Source: Octopus vulgaris
Lineage: Eukaryota
DNA: 64,000 nt
NCBI GenBank assembly: GCA_951406725.2
Contig: OX597829.1
Location: 26,288,001-26,352,000 of the forward strand
Direction of reading: 5' to 3'
Of the stretch, positions 13,446 to 52,934 are shown piece by piece. Below the pieces are notes generated by a model that was not told the DNA's origin, made no database searches, and saw only the letters and a program-made list of their open reading frames with translations. Numbering within the stretch: position 1 is the first letter of the stretch; every line of letters starts with the position of its first letter. Position numbers and translations under genes: made by a program.

Positions 13446-14666
13446 CAGTGTGTGTTGTAAAGAATACTTAATTATTTAAATAAGTTTATTTTATTACATT
13501 TAGTTTGAAATTGCACAAAAATAATTAAAATGTGCTGCTCAACATTCAATTGTTCATGTACACACAATTGTTTGTTTATATTCAGCGAGTAAAATGTTTC
13601 AACATGGCAGCTAACAGGTAAAGTGAGATTGTAGCTCTGAAAAAAAGCAGGACATAGCATCAAAGATGTGGCTTCAAGGATTGGTGCTGATCCCAAAACA
13701 GTCTATAATGTTATGAAACACCACTGAGAGACAGGTTCAATCAATAGCAAGCCCATTCTTGGTCACAAATAATCTGTAAGGATGAAACTATTGGTGGATG
13801 TTGTCCAAAAGAAAGTGTCGTGAAACCCACAGTAGAACAGAAGACATGGTTAAAAGTCTTGATATCTCCCAGACAATCATATGACAAGTCATGCATGACG
13901 ACTTAAATTGTAAGTCATTAAAACTGCAATGTCGACACCTAATTTTGGCCGTTTCCAAAGCAACCGGACAGGTGCAAGAAAATGGCAGAGGAGATTTAGA
14001 GCACTGGTGACAATGTCTTCATCTAGTCAGACAAAACGATGTTAACTGTGGAGGCTGTAGTGAACACCCAGAATAACAGGATTTGGGCCATGAGGTTGGA
14101 TGTTGTCCCTGAAGGTGCCTGCAAGGTGTGTCACCGAATGAAGCCTGTTCGAGTGATGGTTTGGCTGGCAGTGTCATCCAACGGTGGAAAATTTCCTCTG
14201 ATATTCATTAGAGGGAACAAAGGTCAATTTGGCAATAATTATGTGTTTATGCAAGACAGCGCTCCTTCTCATATGCCTTATGTGACACAGCAGTGGAGCA
14301 AGAGCCATTTCACAAGGTTCTGGGACAAGAATGTGTGCTCCCTGCCCCAGCCCAGATGTCAACCCTATGAACTATTCTAGAAAGTGACATTTCAAGAGTT
14401 TCCTACAAAAATATCACTGCTCTGAAGAAAGCCTTAGTCATGTCATGAGATCATTTAATCGAAGAAGTCATCTGGTGTTCCTGTGATTCTGTTCTTGGCT
14501 GTCTTCGGGTGATTATGAAGGTTAAAGACAAACATATTGAATGAAATGTATCTTAATACATTACCCGGCCATATGTAATTAAATTCTATAGAACTCGTGT
14601 GTTTTTATGCTCTTTACTAAAAATTATAACTAAATCTCAATCAGTAATTCTTTACAGCACACCCTG
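13446..14666 (+). mobile_element. Tc1/mariner transposon (maT/DD37D-like), full length, inactivated
   Basis: TIRs CAGTGTGTGTTGTAAAGAATACT and AGTAATTCTTTACAGCACACCCTG followed by TA; remnants LTVEAVVNTQNNRIWA, VMVWLAVS, VFMQDSAPSH. Confidence 0.85.
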
Positions 14667-15559
14667 TATATTAACCAACTTTAAGTTTTACTCTCTCTCT
14701 CATATATCAAAGTACGTGTATGTCCTTGTGTATACATATAATAGTATAATAAAAGAAGCTGTTTATTAATTAATTGAAATTATGTAAGTTTTACTAAAAG
14801 AAAGCAATTATCAAAATTTAAATTTATTTTTATTCTCAAGTATCGTATTCAATTGTTTTTATTAAAATATTTTTATTCACTGCAACATGCATCTCTCTCT
14901 CTCTTCCACTATTTAATTATTTCCATTAAAAATGTGACTACACAGATTTTCTTTGAGATACTTTGACAATATTTATGTCGATTCAATTCTTTTCACTAAA
15001 AATGAATATAGTTTTTCTTTTTAGATACTTCAAGAATATTTGTGAGAATTTTTACTCTATGTCAATCCTTTCAAAATTACTTTGAATTTTATTTAGTGAC
15101 AAGAAAACAAAGTGTGTTAATTATGGTCTGTTGAATAATGAACGATTTAGATTATTTACTACTTCAATTTGCTCCTTACTGATATTTTTTCAATGTCTTC
15201 TTTTGTCTTTGCCTTTTCTTTCACCCCAAAACTTCATTCATAACCCTTGGTCAGCCATTTCATTTAATATTTTTGTCTGTCCACATCCCAGTACATTGTC
15301 TTTTTCACTTTGTTTCCTTGCAATACTTTGTCTTTCTTTCTCTATCTTGCTCTCTACTCCCTCTATTCAACTGTTTTCACTAAAAATAAGTAACTACAAG
15401 GTTTTTCTTTGAGATACCTTCAAATATTTGGGAAAATTTTTTATGTTATATCTATCATAGTGAAACAATTTATCAGATATCAGACGATATTTGAAAAAAA
15501 AAAAACCAACATTTGCACAGATATATAATGCAAAAAATATAATATGAAAACAATGTAAA

Positions 15560-17035
15560 AAAAATACTAAGTGTGGTGGGTTGATGGAAACTGGAGGGGT
15601 AAAAAAAAAAAAAGGTAACATCTACTTTCTGAGTATACACTCTTCTTCTGAAGAATAGATGAGGAGGGAAAAAAAACAGAGGAATAGAGACTTAAGTGTA
15701 TACAATTGTTGTGGCATGCTGAAATGGTCGAATGTGGTAAAGTGGTTACTTTTGGCAACTATGAACCTGGTGTATGTGTGCTTGCTTACACTTTGTATGT
15801 ATGTATGAGGCTGTTGTGTGTGTCATACTAGATGTGTCTAGGTGGAGTAGAAGTGCCAGAAGTATGTGTGTTTATATACTGATGTTAGTAAGTATGCATA
15901 TGAGTAGCATGTGAGATTGTAATTGAAGTGTGAGTGCTAGTGTGTGTGAAATAGATAAGTGTGCATGTAGTAGCAAGTGCATGAGTGTATTGTTTAATCA
16001 TGTTAGTATGTATAGTGTACAGTATTTTGTTAAATGGTGCACTGTAGGTGTCTTATGGGGTTTAAGGGACTGTGGGAATGTAAGAGATAGCTGGCAGGTG
16101 TGGGTGTGAAGGGGAAAAGAAGAAGGGATAAATGAAAAAGTGCTGGGAATTTAGACAGTTGGGGACCAAAGTCTATGCCAGCCAAGTGAAAGTGGCACAA
16201 AACTGAGGTATCATTACCAAGTCTTATGGTAAAACAGTCGTCCAGGCATTAACAAATTTCTCCTATGTAAGAGTGCAGAGGATGCAGTAACTAAGATTAC
16301 TAGATCTACATGAGGAGTCAGTGTTATGAAAAGAGTGATGGTGTGTACCAGTGAAGACAGTAGTGTTGGAGATGGAACATGTGTAACAGCATGGGCAACA
16401 GCAAGGGAAGGAGCAATGTTCTGTTGCTGGGAGCGAGGAAAGAGCCAAGGACTAGTAAGTCGTGTAGGTTGGGGAAAATGTGAGATGTGGCCGGGTCAGA
16501 TTGAAAGTATGCAGAAAGAACATAAAATAGTGTTGGCAGGGTACTGTGGGGGGGGGATAAGTAAGGGGGGAAAGGAGAGGCAGGTAAGGATGGGATGAGC
16601 ATGGGGAGAGAGGACAATCAACAGACCAAGCATGGATGAGGATAGCTTGGATTATAATGGAAGGATATCCTTATTGGTTGAAGTGGCAGGCTATGAGTTG
16701 GGATTGCATCCCAAAATCATGGTCACCATTACAGAGCCAATGGAGGCAGAGGAAGTGAGAGCAGGAGATGGACAGTTTCGTGTAGGTATCTATAGGACTG
16801 TAGGGGATAGAAGTAGAGAGGGAGGAGTGGTTAAAGGAAATGAAAACACCAAGGAAGTTAACAAAGGTGTCAGAGACAGAACAGGAGAATTCAAGGGTGG
16901 AGTGAAAGGACTGGATAAATGAGAGGAAGGAGTTAAGTTGATTGCAGGAGGATAAAGTCACACTAATACAACAGTAGATGTAATGACCATATAGCTCAGG
17001 AGTGAGGCTGGTGAACTGTGAGAATATTCAGGCCT
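15560..17035 (-). mobile_element. Penelope-like element (Neptune-like) 3' portion, decayed
   Basis: LNSFLSFIQSFHSTLEFS...VNFLGV...LSTSI; SSNLSYCILCTL at the GIY-YIG start; degenerate HHR (CAGAAGA-A-GAGT..ACTC-AGAAA) at ~15619-15655. Confidence 0.65.
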
Positions 17036-17411
17036 AAACGCAATCAATAATATTCCCATAAAAGAATAAATGTATATACACACATGCTTATGTATATATA
17101 CATTGGCAGAAATGTGGTCAAAAACCATTCGGAGGGCAGTGTTTCTGCTAGTATATATAAATTTACATAACTGCTCCTCCTGCTAAGTTGTAAAAACTAG
17201 AAATACTGTGATATTCCAGTTGCTAAGCTGCATTACTTTTGAGAGCTTGCCTGAAAAATGCATGTAGTTTACATAAAAAAATATGTCCTATCATATGAAT
17301 TAATTTATAATCATGAAATGTATTTCCCATGCTCTGTAGAAATGACTATAATTAAAGATAAAAACCATAAATTCCAGTCTTTGATTATATATATATATAT
17401 ACACATACATA

Positions 17412-17629
17412 CAAGGGGGTGCTGAAAAGTTCTTGGCTTCAAGAGTATCACAAAAGGTCTGGTTGGGGGCCCAAAATTCTGAGTTCTTTTACAGGGCTTA
17501 GAAAAACTAAAGGACTGCTGCAATAAGTGAGTAAATCTGAGAGGGGAATATGTTAAATAAAATCATAATTAATAGATCCACCTGTATTTTCTTTTATCCA
17601 AAGATAGGAACTTTTCAGAACACCCTCTG
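17412..17629 (+). mobile_element. Internally deleted mariner (MITE-like)
   Basis: TIRs CAAGGGGGTGCTGAAAAGTTCTT and AGGAACTTTTCAGAACACCCTC; residual transposase C-terminus EKLKDCCNK*VNLRGEYVK*. Confidence 0.75.
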
Positions 17630-18074
17630 TGTGTGTGTGTGTGTGTGTATAGGTTTGTGGACACAAAAGAAAATAGAACTCAAAAAACACGAGTACATAA
17701 GATTTTTTTTATTTATTATGAATTGGTTAAAAGTTACACAGTGACTAAAAGGCCAAGTTCTGTACAACTGAAACCAGTTTGATAAAAGCCAATGCATGAA
17801 ACTTACATCTTGAGTCACTCAAACTTCTGCTGATATATATATTATATAAGGCTATTTGAACTATCCTATTTGAACAGCCAGCCTTCAGCTAAACAACTGC
17901 TACATTTGATGATGTAGTCCTCCAAACACATAACCACGAATGAAAAAGTATATCCGGAGTGGATTGTCATGGTCGGAAAGTATTGTCACCTATGGTTTCT
18001 TTCATCGGGTAAAAAAAAAAAGCCTCAAGACTAGGGTAATTACTCTGCTATAATAAAAACTAATTACAAATATT

Positions 18075-19695
18075 TGGTAGTGTTAAGCATGGATGGACTC
18101 CTTCATGATTTTACTTTCTCTTTGACATACCTGGAGTTCGAACACCGATAACGAGACAAAAACTGCATATATATGGAAGCAAGTCGACCGTGAGGCAGAA
18201 ACGAGAAGGGAGGTGTGTTGAAAATGCCATTTAAAAAGATACAAGAAAAAAAGAAGAAATAGATCGTGTTAGATGTGGATGAACTCCTTTGGAGATCCTA
18301 CTTTCTCACAGAAACCTTGGGGCTTGAATTCCTACAAGACAAAAACTGTTTATATATGTAAACAGGACGTCTTAAATTTGTATCTTAAGATATAAACACA
18401 ACTTGACATGGGACGTGTTAGGTATGGATGAACTCCTTACAGATCCGACATTCTCACTGAGGGGTAACCTGGGGTTTGAACTCCGACATTGAGAAAAAAA
18501 CTGCCTATATTTGTAGCCAGGTCGACATGGCGAAGCAAAACTGTGGAGGGAATTGTGTTAATTCTACCCCCTTAAAAAGATATAAAAATATAATAAAACA
18601 GGACGTGTTAGGCATGGATGGACTCCTCAGAAATCCTACTTTCTCATAGACGATAAACCAGCGGATTGAACACGCACAATGAGAAAAATCTGCTTTTATA
18701 TGTAGGCAAGTCGACCTTCGGACGAGGAAATAAATTACCAAAAATAAGAAATGAGGTTTATTATATCCGCCCCCTAAAAAAAAGTATAAACACAGCATGA
18801 AGCAGGATGTGTTGGACATGGATGGATTTCTAAGAGATTCTACTTTCTCATTGAGAGTAGACCAGGGGTTTAAACTCCATCAAGAAGAGATAGGAGTTCA
18901 TATGTCCAGTCGACGACCTTCGGGCGAATTAAAAACGAGAGGGAGTAGTGTAAAAAGTGATCCAAGAAGATATAAACAGGAAACAAAATAGGTGGTGTTT
19001 GGCAGAGATGGACTCCTCAAATCAGCTACTTTCTCCATAACTCAAAAACCGGCGTTAAAACTCCATCAAAAAGAAGAAACCTGCATTCATTTGCAGGCTG
19101 GCCGACCTTCGGACGAAGGAAAAAAAAATGAAAAGGTGTATTAAAAGTAACCCTTAAAAAGATATATACACAAGATGAAATACATCGTGTTAGGTATGAA
19201 TGGACTCCTTAAGGCCTCTACATCCTCACTGACCTCAAATCCGGAGTTAAACACACCATAAAAATAGAGAAAACTGCATTTATTTACACGCACGTCGACC
19301 TCATTAAGGCAAAATTAAAAGGGGTGTGTGTTAAAAGTGGCACCTAAAAATATACAAAAACTGGACAAAATACGTTGTATTAAGTACTGAGGGACTCTTT
19401 AGGGTCCTTACTTTCTTTCTTACCTCAAGACGGGGTGAAAATCCCCATCAAAATCCAGAAGACTGCATTCTTTTACAGGCACGTCAACTTTCGGACGATG
19501 AAAAAAAAGAGAGTGAGGTGTGCAAAAAGTGACCTCTAAAATATACAAAAGCAAAACGAAATACATCGTCTTGGACATGAATGGACACTTTAGGGTTTCT
19601 ACTTTCTCGCTGACCTTATGCCAGGTTCGAAGTCTCTAGTAAAACCTCGCAAACTGCATTCATTTACACACACGTCGACCCCATTACGGGACGAA
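18075..19695. repeat. Diverged tandem array, 9 units of ~191 bp
   Basis: GGACTCCT-like anchor at ~18095, 18281, 18430, 18620, 18823, 19011, 19202, 19392, 19583; GTCGAC-like anchor at 18183, 18521, 18710, 18909, 19101, 19294, 19483, 19674. Confidence 0.92.
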
Positions 19696-19815
19696 TCTAG
19701 CACAAAATACGCTTAAAGTGGTTGAAAAAAGGGCAAAAAACAAAATTAAGACACAAAAAAAGAGGCAAATGCATCAAAATATATAAAATATGGAAGCCCT
19801 AAATAGTTTACTTAC

Positions 19816-19902
19816 CGAATCTGTGGTTAATTTGGGATCCAGTGAAGCAGAAAGACGGGTTTTCGTAGCTAACTTCTTCCCCAAACGGGATGAAGCCGCC
19901 AT
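19816..19902 (-). CDS. Putative first coding exon of an unidentified host gene (MAASSRLGKKLATKTRLSASLDPKLTTDS)
   Basis: AAAATGGCGG start context, 29 open codons, consensus donor G|GTAAGT (phase 0), non-repetitive and CpG-retaining context. Downstream exons not identified. Confidence 0.7.
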
Positions 19903-19940
19903 TTTCCTGCTACGCAATTGACATCGGTTGTCACGTGATT
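19895..19940 (-). promoter_or_regulatory. Housekeeping-type promoter: YY1-like motif over the ATG plus an extended E-box
   Basis: GCCGCCATTTT at 19895-19905; GTCACGTGA at 19930-19938. Confidence 0.55.
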
Positions 19941-20017
19941 AGATGAGTATAAGTGTGAGTAGAAGGTTGTCGCTCAGTGCCATATATTAAAATAGAGAGG
20001 GACGGGGGGGAAAGTGG

Positions 20018-20663
<646 letters not shown>

Positions 20664-20664
20664 T

Positions 20665-23032
20665 TGTACCATAACGGCAGCGGAAGTGCGGGACGCGATA
20701 GCAGAATGCTCGAGGGACAAATCGCCGGGTTTGGATGGTCTACCCTACGAGCTTTACAGTTGTATGCCAGCCTTGTTTGAAGACGTCTTGGCAGCAAAGT
20801 GGGAGCATCCCCGGTTTTGTGAGTCGAGGAGCCGTAACGCTGCTGAAGAAAGATCCAAACAAGGGGGCGGGGCGTAATAGATAACTTTAGGCCCATCACT
20901 CTGCTCAATGCAGACTTGAAAATTTTGGCCAAGAGATTGGCGCTTGTCATCAAGAAACTGGTCGACAAGGCGCAAACGTGCGCCGTGCCGGGCCGGAGCA
21001 TCCATGACAACCTCCATCTGATGCGCAACATCATAGACTGGGTAGTTAAGGAACCTGGCATGGATGGGGTTCTGATCAATTTGGATCAATCGAAAGCTTT
21101 CGATAGGGTAGACCATCGATACTTGGAGGCTGTCCTCATAGTGGCCGGTTTCGGTCCCGTCTTCCGCGGCTGGATAGCTGCTTCGTACAGAGGCATCCGT
21201 TCGGTAATTCGCGTAAATGGACATCTATCGAGACTTTTAGACATTGCATGTTCGGTCCGTCAGGGATGCTCACTCTCGTCGCTTCTGTACGTATTGACTC
21301 TCGAGCCACTACTGCGGAAGCTGACGACTTTCAGGGGCATCCCGCAAGAATTGGGTTGCGGGACGAGCGTGTCTGCATACACGGACGACGTCACCGTCGT
21401 AGTATCTAACCAAACGTACATCAAGCTGGTCGGCGAGACACTGAAAGACTACGAAACAGTAACAGGAGCAAAAATCAACCGGGAAAAGTCAGTAGGCTTG
21501 CGGCTCAGCACCTGGAGAAGCAAGCCCATGCCGTCCACCGGTGCCTCCGTCGTGGGACGCTGGACCGACAGTCCGGTCGAGTTGCTCGGGGTCTGGTTTG
21601 GTCCGGACCTCCAAATGGAGAAGAACTGGGACGAGATAACGAGTAGGGTGGTCACTCTCGTCCGGCAATGGGCCGAGAGGAAGCTGTCCCTAAAAGGTCG
21701 AGCAAAGGTTGCGAACACGTACATCGCGTCCGTCATTTACTACCACCTGACCGCCCTACCATCACCAAACTAGAACGCATTCTCTTCCGCTTCTTGTGGA
21801 AAGGATGCGTTCCAATGGTCAGGTGATCCATTTGCTGTCAATACCCGTTAAAAGGAGGGCTGGGCATGCCGTAGTTGATGATGCGCAGACACGCGCTGAG
21901 ACTGCGACATCTCCAACTCTACGTAGACGACGGTGAACAGGTATGGTCGCCGTTTGTGAGGCACACTTTCCCGCAGCTCGTCGCCATGACCGAACTGCAG
22001 TCGTGGATCAAAAAGAGGCCGAGGAAGGGCGAATGGCACCGCGAGTATCGCGTTGCTCTCAAGCAACTATGCCGTCCCGGGTCGACCTTAAGCGACTTCA
22101 ACACAACCAAAGCATTCTATAGGAGATTATTGGAGGGGAGGTACGTTGACGATCTCCGGGCGAACCTGGACGTCGATGAGGAATACCTGACCCGCTTGTT
22201 CAAGACAACTTTCGGGCCGGGACCTATGGACAACTTCCAGAGATCCCTGGCCTGTCAGTGCTATCGAGAAGCGCTACCCATTCGGGATAAGCTCTACATA
22301 TATGGCTCGAGAAACACGGGGCCGACCTGTCCGAGATGCGGTCAGAGCGACGAAACCGTCCTGCACGCACACGTACAGTGTCCAACCATTTCCGACCTGT
22401 AGGCCTATGTCGAACGACTGCTATCGCGTGTGGGACAAGTCAGTTTATCAACCGAGTCTTTCGTGAATTTTGTCGCGCCTCCTTCCTTGAAAGAGCTTTT
22501 TCATCGTACTTGTGGCTATGACGAAAGAATGTATATGATGGACGCGTCTGAAAGGCCTAGAGACAAACACTTTTCTCTCTGGTCAATCTCTCATCAACTT
22601 CTTCAAGTATCAATTGAAGAGGAAGGTGAGAGTAGAGAGGGAAGTTTTGTCTAGTGAATGCTTCAAAAAAGATGGGTGAATGTAGCAAGAATGGTACGTG
22701 TGAATGACGGAGCCAGTTTGAGCATAATCCTATGGACCAAAAGAAAAAAACAAAACGAAAGGAAAAAAGAGAGCCACTTACTGTAATCTGTTTTCTTTTT
22801 GCATGATACTATTGCCCAAGGTTCCCGTAGTCTTTTCCGTAGGCTTTTCTATCAACGGACAAACCTAATCTGTTTTCCCTTTTTGCATTGACTTTCTATG
22901 ATACACGATCCCTATTGATCGGCCCCACTTTTATTTTTCACGATCCCTTTTGATCGGAATTCGCCCCCCCCCCTTAAGCTCTAGTTTGTATTTTATCCCT
23001 TCTAAGTTCAGCCCTGCGTGGCCAATAAAGAA

Positions 23033-23033
<1 letters not shown>
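20665..23033 (+). mobile_element. Tx1/L1-clade LINE ORF2 3' part (RT plus CCHC), 5'-truncated
   Basis: KSPGLDGLPYELY, NFRPITLLNADLKILAK, LDQSKAFDRVDH, SVRQGCSLS, AYTDDV, KGGLGMP, CPRCGQSDETVLHAHVQC; AATAAA at 23024 followed by (TCTA)n. Confidence 0.92.
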
Positions 23034-23097
<64 letters not shown>

Positions 23098-23209
23098 CCT
23101 ATCAATTTATTTATTTATTTAGCTGTGTCAGAGTGTCTATCTATATTTAGCCATCTATTTATCACTCCCTCTATCTATTTATTTATCAAACTATCTATCC
23201 ATCTATCTA

Positions 23210-24775
23210 TCCGCTCAGTCGAAGTCGACTCTCGGTTATTAGATGGATCAGTGTTCTCCAGCCAGTTCCATCCTGGGCCTATTCTTTCAGATTGGCTATG
23301 ACCATTCCCGTGTCACTCTTGATGGTGTCAAGCCAGCGGGTTCTTGGTCGGCCTCTTCCTCTCTTGCCACTGACCATTCCGAGCATGATGTCCTTCTCCA
23401 GGGATTTTCTCCACATAATATAACCAAAATATGCCAATCTATGCTTGGTGATCCTAGCTTCCAGCGACAGATTCGGCTTGATCTGGTTAAGAACTTCTCC
23501 ATTGGTGAGCCTCGCTGTCCATGGAATCCGTAGAAGTATTCTCCAACACCAAAACTCGAATGCATTAATTCTCTTCTGGTCAGCTTTCTTTAGTGTCCAG
23601 GTCTCGCATCCATATGTTGCTATTGGGAAGACGATTGCATTCACCAATCTGCATTTGGTAGCGAGGCGGATGTCTCTACTCTTCCAGACCTTGCTCATGC
23701 TGACCATTGCCTCTCCGCCTTGTACTATCCGCCGCCTTATTTCTGGAGTGCAGTTACCATCACGATTTATTTTGGAGCCAAGGAAGATGAAATCAGCAAC
23801 CACTTCGATCTCTTCATTATCGATCTTGATACTGATGTTTGTTGTGGCTGCTGTTGACATGATCGTTTTCTTAACATTGAGGTACAGCCCAAATTCTCAC
23901 ACTCTTTCTTGACTAGTAGGATAAGATTCTCTAGATCCTTATTTTCTGCCAGCAGCGTTGTATCATCTGCATAGCGAAGGTTATTAATATTTCTTTCTCT
24001 AATCCTCATTCCAATGCTGCTATCCTCCAGGCCTGCATTCCTCATGACCTTTTCAGCGTACATGTTGAAGGCTGCTGGTGACAGGATGCAACCTTGCCGA
24101 GTGCCTTTTCCAATCTCAAACCAATCAGTGTCGCCATATGGTGTCCGTACTGTAGTCACTTGATTTCGATAGAGTGATCTAATAAGCTGGACAAGGTGTA
24201 AAGGTGTTCCCATTTTCTTCAGACATTTCCATACCTTGTCATGATCAATGCTGTCAAAGGCTTTGGAGTAATCGATAAAACACATGTACAGCTTCTGTTG
24301 GTATTCTCTTGCCTTTTCCATAATCCACCGTAGGTTGGCGATGTGATCGCGGGTGCCTCTTCCATTTCTGAAACCAGCTTGCACTTCTGGCAATTCTCTC
24401 TCAATAGTTGTGTTCAGGCGCTTCTGGATGATTTTAAAGAGAATTTTGCTTACATGGGGGATCAGGGTGATGGTACGGGTCTTCTTTACATGTTGGTAAA
24501 GTTCTCTCATGTTCCCTTTCCTATATGCCACCTCTGCCCTTGCACATTCCTCATTCCAGTATTTCTCTTTGTCCTTCCTGGCCGCCTGTTGGAACATTGC
24601 ATTCAGGCGCCGCATTTCATCCCTGCTTCTGGTCACCTTTGCTCTCCTTCTTTCTTCTGCTATTGCAATAGTCTCCTCCAAAATCCACTTTGCTGATCGT
24701 GTGGGTTTCTTGTACAGAACATGTTTCTCTGCTGTTTCAACGACAATTTCCTTCACATTCTCCCATATTTCTTCT
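23210..24775 (-). mobile_element. RTE (BovB-like) LINE RT and 3' end
   Basis: QAGFRNGRGTRDHIANLRWI, FIDYSKAFDS, RQGCILSP, NLRYADDTTL, TYGCETWT, RGRPRTRWLD. Confidence 0.93.
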
Positions 24776-24948
24776 ATCAAACTATCAAACTATTTATCTA
24801 TCCATCTATGTATCTCCCTTTCACACACGCACTCTCTCACTCTCTCTCTCTCTACATCCTTCTCTATCCATCTTCTATCAATCTGACACTCGGTCTGTCT
24901 CTTGGTCTTGCTGTCCATCTGTATGCTGTCTACTTCATTTTTTGTCTG

Positions 24949-25014
<66 letters not shown>

Positions 25015-25061
25015 CATTTATCCGTCTATCTGTCTGTCTGCCTGCCTGCCTGTCTGTCTGT

Positions 25062-25198
25062 CACCCCAATTTTTTTCCACGATCCCTTTTGATCGGAATT
25101 CGACCCTTTTTTTCTTTCCTCCTCTTCTTCCCCAAAAGAAAAGCTCTACTTTGTATTTTGTCTCGTCTGTCTTCAGCCCTGCGTGGCCAATAAAGAAA
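25062..25198 (+). mobile_element. Second 3'-terminal fragment of the Tx1-like LINE
   Basis: CACGATCCCTTTTGATCGGAATTCG...TTCAGCCCTGCGTGGCCAATAAAGAAATC matches 22939-23035. Confidence 0.85.
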
Positions 25199-25352
25199 TC
25201 TTTCTATCTGTCTGTTTGTCTGTCCACCCGTCTATCCATCCTTCTTCCGTCTAGGTTAAGGAAAATAACTCTGGGAATATATTATGAGTAGCTTCCCTTG
25301 ACAACCAGGGCGAGGTTCTTTTAGTTGTTTTAAAGTGTCTTTTCGTTTTTGT

Positions 25353-25456
25353 ATGAACAACAATATGATATTGAGGGCACTTGGCAGTCGCTTTTACGAA
25401 ATACTTCTCAAAGTGCCCTTCATCTTATATGAAAATTCAAATTTGTGGTCGCTTAG
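25353..25456 (+). CDS. Possible first exon of a divergent plus-strand gene (MNNNMILRALGSRFYEILLKVPF...)
   Basis: Open frame from ATG to AG|GTATTA in apparently unique sequence; no downstream exon found. Confidence 0.2.
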
Positions 25457-25902
25457 GTATTATCTGTAACAGTATGTGAAACCTCCAAAAGTACAATTTT
25501 TAATGCTTCATAAAATTTTGTTAAATTTTGTAGAGAATATTCAATTATTTCTATTATGAAGGGTACTTTAAAAACATTTACATAGAAAAATTGTCCGATA
25601 GGTGGTTTCACAACATGCTAGAAAAAACAGGTAGATGCTCTCAAATTTACGTTTATATATATAATGATATGTAATTGTATGATCCAAGAATCTAGGTGTA
25701 GGAGGTCTGTAGCAGGTATAATTCTTTTATAGTTCACATTAGCAACTTGGGTTGCTATGAATGTGAATAAAAATCCAAAGTCCCTCAATTTGGATTTAAA
25801 TGTATATATGTGTATGTTTATATATATATATATATATTGATAGAAATGGTAAGACAACAAAAGAATGAAAGAGACCTCAATATTATGTAAATAGAGGAAT
25901 TT

Positions 25903-52418: not shown

Positions 52419-52696
52419 TCTCTCTGAGCATAGGATGCATCGATTAGATGATAAGCGCACGGATTCAGGAGACGAAGTCCCACTTCAGTTCGAACGAGAT
52501 AAATTTCTAGTGAGTCTTGGTTTTGCCATGACTATCAACTAATCGCAAGGGCAAACATCTCTCTGAGCATAGGATGCATCGATTAGATGATAAGCGCACG
52601 GATTCAGGAGACGAAGTCCCACTTCAGTTCGAACGAGATAAATTTCTAGTGAGTCTTGGTTTTGCCATGACTATCAACTAATCGCAAGGGCAAACA
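52419..52696. repeat. Perfect 139-bp tandem duplication
   Basis: 52419-52557 equals 52558-52696. Confidence 0.93.
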
Positions 52697-52934
52697 TTTT
52701 CGGTTGCCGGTTTTCACCTTGAAGAGCCTAATGGTTAGCTTTACGTAGAATATTCAAGAGTAGGCAATAAGAAAATATCTACATCTATGCAGCAAGCGTA
52801 AAAACAAATAATGCAGAAATGCCCCAAATAATGCAGAAATCCGTTCTGATCAAGAGGATTAGCTGTCAGAGATCGGGGAAAATATGGTCTGATATGGAAT
52901 AAAAAAAATTGAAATAAAAGCCCCCTATTGTGAA

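Follow-up and report, generated by a model that had tools for sequence, protein, structure and literature searches.

A diverged nine-unit tandem array within the predicted first intron of an Octopus vulgaris gene

Unequal crossing-over drives the evolution of single-locus tandem repeats and of short satellite-like arrays whose units are 150-200 bp long. SSUsat is reportedly a mollusc example of such satellite-like arrays. A nucleosome-sized period is common in tandem repeats and is in itself no evidence of selection. Internal tandem repeats are also carried by Helitron/MITE-like mollusc elements of the pearl/CvA and DTC84 type, and in Drosophila, H/ACA snoRNAs are found in intronic tandem clusters. 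As for the 5' ends of cephalopod genes, methylation in Octopus bimaculoides is directed to the bodies of certain genes only, one class of which is unmethylated at the transcription start site (TSS) (PMC9476566). Promoters and first exons of Nautilus are generally unmethylated (PMC12532940). Here we describe a locus of O. vulgaris that shares features with each of these systems.

The window analyzed is a single stretch of 64,000 nucleotides. Positions 18060-19740 were found to consist of nine head-to-tail units of ~190 bp each (Table 1). The pairwise identity among the nine units was 0.59 on average (range 0.48-0.69), and a profile HMM built from them recovered 9/9 units with E-values from 3e-27 to 5e-46, a match by construction. 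The diverged nine-unit array proposed in the first-pass annotation is confirmed. The anchor-to-anchor distances (GT.TT) were 186, 149, 190, 204, 186, 192, 190, and 191 bp; the spacings given previously (186, 149, 190, 203, 188, 191, 190, and 191 bp) were borne out within 2 bp. With the nine-unit profile, no tenth copy was detected elsewhere in the 64-kb window at E<=10. TRF reported no row for the array because the units are too diverged.

The five motifs that had been described as ordered do keep their order. However, they are looser than stated: exact matches occur in only 1/9, 5/9, 2/9, 4/9, and 1/9 units, and the fifth motif was found in only 4/9 units at <=2 mismatches. The array had also been described as free of microsatellites and transposable elements. 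TRF detected no microsatellite inside it, but 10 of the 69 intervals that separate merged TRF arrays reach 1620 bp or more, and the absence of microsatellites across the array is not unusual. The absence of transposable elements rests on low read depth. Elsewhere in the window, a perfect two-copy tandem duplication of 139 bp (100% match) is present at 52419-52697; it is either very recent or an assembly duplication.

Table 1. Positions of the array units, the predicted parts of the host gene and the CpG-retaining domain in the window
Feature	Position	Strand	Remarks
CpG-retaining domain	17930..20010	no strand	best change-point 17930, support interval 17850-18130
Candidate exon 2	17807..18047	-	pyrimidine-rich TAG acceptor, GTAAGT donor; sequence prediction only
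Intron 1, predicted	18048..19815	-	1768 bp; array occupies ~93%
Unit 1	18060..18245	no strand	
Unit 2	18246..18394		149 bp; ~41-bp deletion
Unit 3	18395..18584		
Unit 4	18585..18788		204 bp
Unit 5	18789..18974		
Unit 6	18975..19166		
Unit 7	19167..19356		
Unit 8	19357..19547		
Unit 9	19548..19740		unit closest to exon 1
Host exon 1, predicted	19816..19902	-	29-codon reading frame, then GTAAGT donor at 19815
Promoter-like motifs	19895..19938	-	GCCGCCATTTT at 19895-19905, presumably YY1-like; TCACGTGA at 19931-19938, which we take to be E-box-like

The array had been placed in the first intron of a putative host gene, starting ~120 bp after exon 1. Both statements were supported: the array lies within intron 1 as predicted for a gene on the minus strand, and it stops ~115-120 bp within this intron, counted from the GTAAGT donor. 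The peptide of the predicted exon 1 shares 29/29 residues with an O. bimaculoides UniRef model of 30 aa (A0A0L8G4R5, a single-member cluster). Therefore, an annotated first exon is indicated. The O. bimaculoides model terminates in Arg after exon 1. An exon start with Arg followed by a stop codon was found within the window only at 12092, with a weak acceptor, and it was not adopted. Joining exon 1 to candidate exon 2 would yield a 55-aa frame. Just past the candidate exon-2 donor, AATAAA is present at 17712-17717 (minus strand), and a U/GU-rich tract follows ~20 nt later. The segment 17690-17717 is a possible proximal (intronic) poly(A) site, which would give a short two-exon transcript. No relatives of the exon-1 peptide were found among proteins of 75-2000 aa (0/8 candidates). 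The host gene may therefore be non-coding, carry a uORF, or have been mis-split. An Atlas search with the peptide also gave no match.

Nine runs were guessed as RNA, of which eight contain 0.25-0.29 of the words and one 0.84; two of the nine were compared. Run X7 (type guessed) gave a single unspliced contig across 18012-19648 at depth 2, and run X11 gave short pieces at depth 2-4; neither is taken as evidence for or against expression or splicing. None of the 15 joints listed, out of 620, fell inside the array or the intron, and this too is not taken as evidence on splicing. Just upstream of the promoter, a 5'-truncated and frameshifted LINE reverse-transcriptase-like fragment, which we take to be Tx1/L1-like, was recognized by eye at 20664-22800 (plus strand). 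Its CpG o/e is 1.06, GATA microsatellites lie on its flanks, and two copies of its 3' end are present near 22900-23030 and 25070-25200.

The similarity between units depends on their distance. In order of increasing unit distance, identity was 0.633, 0.622, 0.589, 0.570, 0.551, 0.526, 0.524, and 0.522, and the correlation (Spearman -0.73) was as strong in 0/5000 permutations. In the ML tree, the units form a ladder from u1 to u9 in physical order, with tips of 0.20-0.53 and internal branches of 0.03-0.11. The support was 96 for u6-u9, 83 for u7-u9, and 46-55 elsewhere, and the core-only tree gave nearly the same ladder. Thus, the distance-graded identity and the ladder tree point to stepwise duplication between neighbors that stopped long ago. 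Since the tree is unrooted, the growth direction of the array is not fixed. Homologous units in head-to-tail order with neighbor-biased similarity, as observed here, are what a relic array presents.

The units may have arisen by unequal crossing-over or slippage between neighbors, and homogenization would then have halted long ago. The appearance of conserved motifs with indel-prone linkers would be a remnant of the ancestral unit, given that A-runs would slip faster than mixed sequence, and the remaining motifs would be under weak constraint at most. On balance, we lean toward the reading that the array is an ancient single-locus tandem amplification, which is frozen and decays largely neutrally in an unmethylated gene 5' end.

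In run X8, the array was covered by single long contigs at a depth of 5.8-9.3, vs 1e4-1e5 in SINE bins, a comparison made at >=80% likeness and blind to copies below 80%, in which read depth is not equal to copy number. No high-copy family of the array unit was found at >=80% likeness in runs X8 and X9. The depth in X9 was like that in X8 except at 18211-18724, where it was 14.7 and 25.7 vs about 1-7 in the other array bins; units 2-4 may have a short paralogous match there. An abundant satellite family was not supported, as an array with 59% identity is not homogenized and the X8 depth (at >=80% likeness) gives no sign of high copy number. No terminal inverted repeats flank the array. A scan with the unit pattern gave 0 matches in metagenome contigs and 0 in viral contigs. 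A looser pattern gave 12 loci; outside the motif, none of them fitted the unit profile (best E=0.005, across 31 bases), and blastn against phages gave no match to the array. Literature on this locus was not found within open-access papers.

The evidence for constraint on the array is mixed. Invariant columns make up 16.9% of 183 columns, vs ~10% in the uniform and in the uniform plus CpG neutral simulations (0/70 each). In the core, 24% of the columns are invariant vs 14% in the simulations (1/150), and with gap-free columns, 28/172 are invariant vs 13-16 simulated. The simulations were uniform or CpG-hypermutable, with indels and realignment, and without A-run slippage or patchy gene conversion. 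Divergence was slightly higher in them than in the data (0.42 vs 0.41; 0.38 vs 0.36), and therefore the excess of invariant columns is inflated. Conservation was autocorrelated along the unit (0-3 of 70 simulations), and the invariant columns were clustered in its first half. Rate variation was mild, with an alpha of 2.6 for the whole unit and 2.0 for the core. Unclustered gamma rates matched the invariant count (15/70) but not the autocorrelation (0/70). When the A-rich linker was left out, the regional clustering within the core was not significant, as 33, 12, and 17 of 150 simulations reached the observed values.

Contigs of X8 and X9 were also compared with the window. There were 18/3270 differences in the array plus exon 1 (0.55%) and 35/5946 in the flanks (0.59%; Fisher p=0.89), a comparison of low power that covers near-identical samples only. 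This count was made on 13/32 pieces; three X8/X9 pieces resembling paralogous repeats and all pieces of the two guessed-RNA runs were excluded. Since X8 and X9 carry other organism labels yet are only ~0.5% different, they provide no test of orthology. Thus, conservation in the array is somewhat less even than under a uniform neutral model, but unclustered gamma rates reproduce the number of invariant columns, the clustering is not significant without the linker, and the differences between samples are not reduced.

CpG-containing motifs had been reported to persist in the array, and they do: the array has a CpG o/e of 0.80, as compared with 1.01 at exon 1/promoter and 0.21 over 3241-17800. 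The TpG/CpA o/e is 1.30 over 3241-17800 vs 0.99 in the array. However, this persistence does not serve as a sign of selection on the units, as the entire 5' domain to 20010 is CpG-rich and the gene body is depleted. Judging from CpG o/e, the gene body to the left of ~17900 would be methylated in the germ line, and exon 1 and intron 1 would be unmethylated. CpG motifs would then survive without selection because the array is within the inferred unmethylated 5' domain of a body-methylated gene. This pattern fits the methylated bodies and unmethylated TSSs of octopus and the unmethylated promoters and first exons of Nautilus (PMC9476566, PMC12532940).

The CpG change-point is within ~130 bp of the array end (18060), and the boundary of the domain also coincides with the candidate exon-2 acceptor (18047). 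In human cells, H2Bub1 chromatin is reported to change past the first internal exon (PMC4199367). Because the boundary is shared by the array end and the exon-2 acceptor, and in view of this precedent, the array is not singled out as its cause. By the CpG o/e proxy only, the array is CpG-rich and coextensive with a putative unmethylated domain, whose boundary candidate exon 2 also explains.

Two further regions of the window concern base composition. At 14847-15430, where the gene body is depleted in CpG, a diverged AT-rich unit of ~65 bp is present in three or four copies; two or three of them are adjacent and one is ~380 bp away. Upstream of the host promoter, the region 22800-35000 has a CpG o/e of 0.42 with a TpG excess, vs 0.84 over 35000-64000. 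This suggests either old methylated repeats or the body of a second gene that is methylated in part.

The first-pass annotation had proposed that the array is under selection, for nucleosome phasing or for factor binding. In this case, the array would be retained as a cis-regulatory element, with its CpG-bearing cores acting as a CpG-island-like promoter extension and/or in the phasing of nucleosomes +2 to +10. Recruitment of CXXC/H3K4me3 machinery would hold off gene-body methylation to ~17900, and the A-tract linkers would phase the nucleosomes. We regard this as unlikely, although several observations are in its favor. The CpG domain ends next to the array end, invariant columns are in excess and concentrate in the first half of each unit, and the period is ~190 bp. 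The anatomy of the unit is also suitable: a ~130-bp core has 34-49% GC, and A-tracts cover 17-31% of the linker vs 1-7% of the first core half. However, a second A-tract lies within the core (25% at +70), and the spacing is uneven, ranging from 149 to 204 bp. For the 10-bp AA/TT/TA periodicity, 5/39 windows score as high, one of them overlapping the array. Nucleosome-sized units are generally found in many satellites that have no such function. The differences between samples are not reduced relative to the flanks, and the CpG boundary coincides also with the candidate exon-2 acceptor, for which the H2Bub1 study cited above offers a precedent (PMC4199367).

A more far-reaching form of the proposal is that selection retained an ancient tandem amplification of nucleosome-sized units carrying CpGs and thereby built a ~1.9-kb CpG-island-like domain in intron 1, in which nine phased modules set the start of methylation in a cephalopod gene of the housekeeping type. 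This appears quite unlikely. If true, it would represent a repeat-built invertebrate CpG island and a nucleosome ruler.

We also considered that each unit could be a duplicated exon-intron cassette on the minus strand, with an exon of ~120 nt and a mini-intron of ~68 nt (GT ... CTAAC-like branch ... T-tract ... AG), together forming an alternatively spliced non-coding or uORF leader. The A-rich left end of unit 1 contains a candidate branch-like site, a pyrimidine tract, and the AG acceptor of intron 1 at 18048-18049 (minus strand), and the elements of the other cassettes are in register with this predicted acceptor. On the minus strand, GT is invariant in 9/9 units, the branch-like AA is invariant in 9/9, and AG follows the T-tract in 7/9. 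However, about two invariant dinucleotides would be expected by chance, where four were observed, and most of the donors are weak (AAA|GTAGGA type), with a distance of only ~30 nt to the branch-like site. The density of acceptor-like AGs does not exceed that of other regions (7.9 vs 6.1 per kb). Two acceptors, at 19535 and 19711, begin with an Arg codon, like the residue in which the O. bimaculoides model ends, but neither is followed by a stop codon. Furthermore, CpG depletion sets in only beyond the array. Thus, the cassettes are very unlikely.

A decayed protein-coding repeat of ~62-64 aa per unit, on the plus strand or as an antisense shadow frame, is hardly credible. Some of the signals are of the kind expected from a coding relic. 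In the first 70 columns, a block that was picked after looking, there is a third-position excess (0.45 vs 0.29 and 0.31, p=0.012). The plus frame contains 10/397 stops, where the null gives 26.6 (p=0.027, a value for this frame alone). In the six-frame BLOSUM test, p was 0.003 for a minus frame within the first block, and 0.023 for a plus frame over the whole unit. Several core indels are of 3 nt. However, there is no significant rise in the synonymous fraction (0.163 vs 0.142, six-frame p=0.82), there is no periodicity across the whole unit (p=0.32), and neighboring units have stops at homologous codons on both strands. Pfam returned 0 families for 4/4 plus-frame pieces. No homologues were found in 1.84 billion representatives, among 6249 word-sharing candidates (0/6249), or in the PDB, and the top score in the Atlas was 0.80. 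A continuous ORF across the units is already largely refuted.

That the units form a tandem series of small structured RNAs, be they snoRNAs, snRNA-like RNAs, miRNAs, or ribozymes, we consider extremely improbable, since there was no Rfam match to the array at the gathering score (best E=0.35), no shared fold, no covariation, and single-unit folding z-scores were near zero (-2.2 to +2.0 in 16 folds of 8/9 units). The array does lie in an intron, individual units allow local hairpins, such as one at 19390-19409, and a UUCG loop is present in four units. However, RNAalifold with 8/9 units gave 3 pairs on the plus strand and 0 on the minus strand, with no compensatory changes. Sliding windows over all nine units were without a fold in 14/14 cases (consensus z -1.5 at best), G-U pairs in the stems were not consistently above A-C, and neither conserved C/D boxes nor H/ACA spacing was found in the array units. 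The cluster of small RNA units put forward in the first-pass annotation is accordingly rejected on sequence grounds. Main-text passages of an octopus miRNA paper describe no such cluster, and six array motifs were not found in the searched part of its supplements, which does not effectively cover its miRNA sequence lists (PMC9699675). Likenesses to tRNA, vault, U1, Y RNA, hammerhead, HDV, and pistol, noted by eye, had no Rfam support and no conserved cores. At another site, 30528-30588 on the minus strand, a sequence resembles a tRNA that is truncated and has the anticodon TTG (Gln) (Rfam tRNA 48.8 bits, model positions 6-65). It is not called by ARAGORN, sits between SINE pieces, and is probably a retrocopy or fragment.

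If the array is, as we favor, a neutrally decaying amplification, it is a clean frozen tandem array in which the ladder of divergence records growth. It would also be a caution that CpG retention and a 'motif plus linker' appearance near a TSS require no selection. If the array is regulatory, the question of how the 5' edge of gene-body methylation is set in invertebrates could be addressed at a single locus that can be deleted.

In comparison with the known systems, the array resembles the intronic tandem H/ACA snoRNA clusters of Drosophila in having several diverged head-to-tail units in one intron, but the units possess neither the two-hairpin fold nor a properly spaced H box-ACA, nor covariation. 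With the repeats of Helitron/MITE-like mollusc elements it shares a short array of ~150-200-bp units; it differs from them in that no terminal inverted repeats flank it, no other copies were found in X8 at >=80%, and its units are far more diverged. Like the unmethylated promoter/first-exon domains of body-methylated cephalopod genes (MP2 in PMC9476566; PMC12532940), the locus keeps CpG at the 5' end of a gene whose body is depleted. Here, however, the domain, with its methylation state inferred from CpG o/e, extends for ~1.9 kb and is almost wholly one repeat array. Finally, the array is similar to single-locus tandem repeats and short satellite-like arrays in its nucleosome-sized unit, its head-to-tail copies, and a similarity that falls with distance. 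In contrast to satellite-like arrays, it comprises nine copies that are 59% identical, shows no high-copy sign, and lies in the CpG-rich 5' end of a gene instead of heterochromatin.
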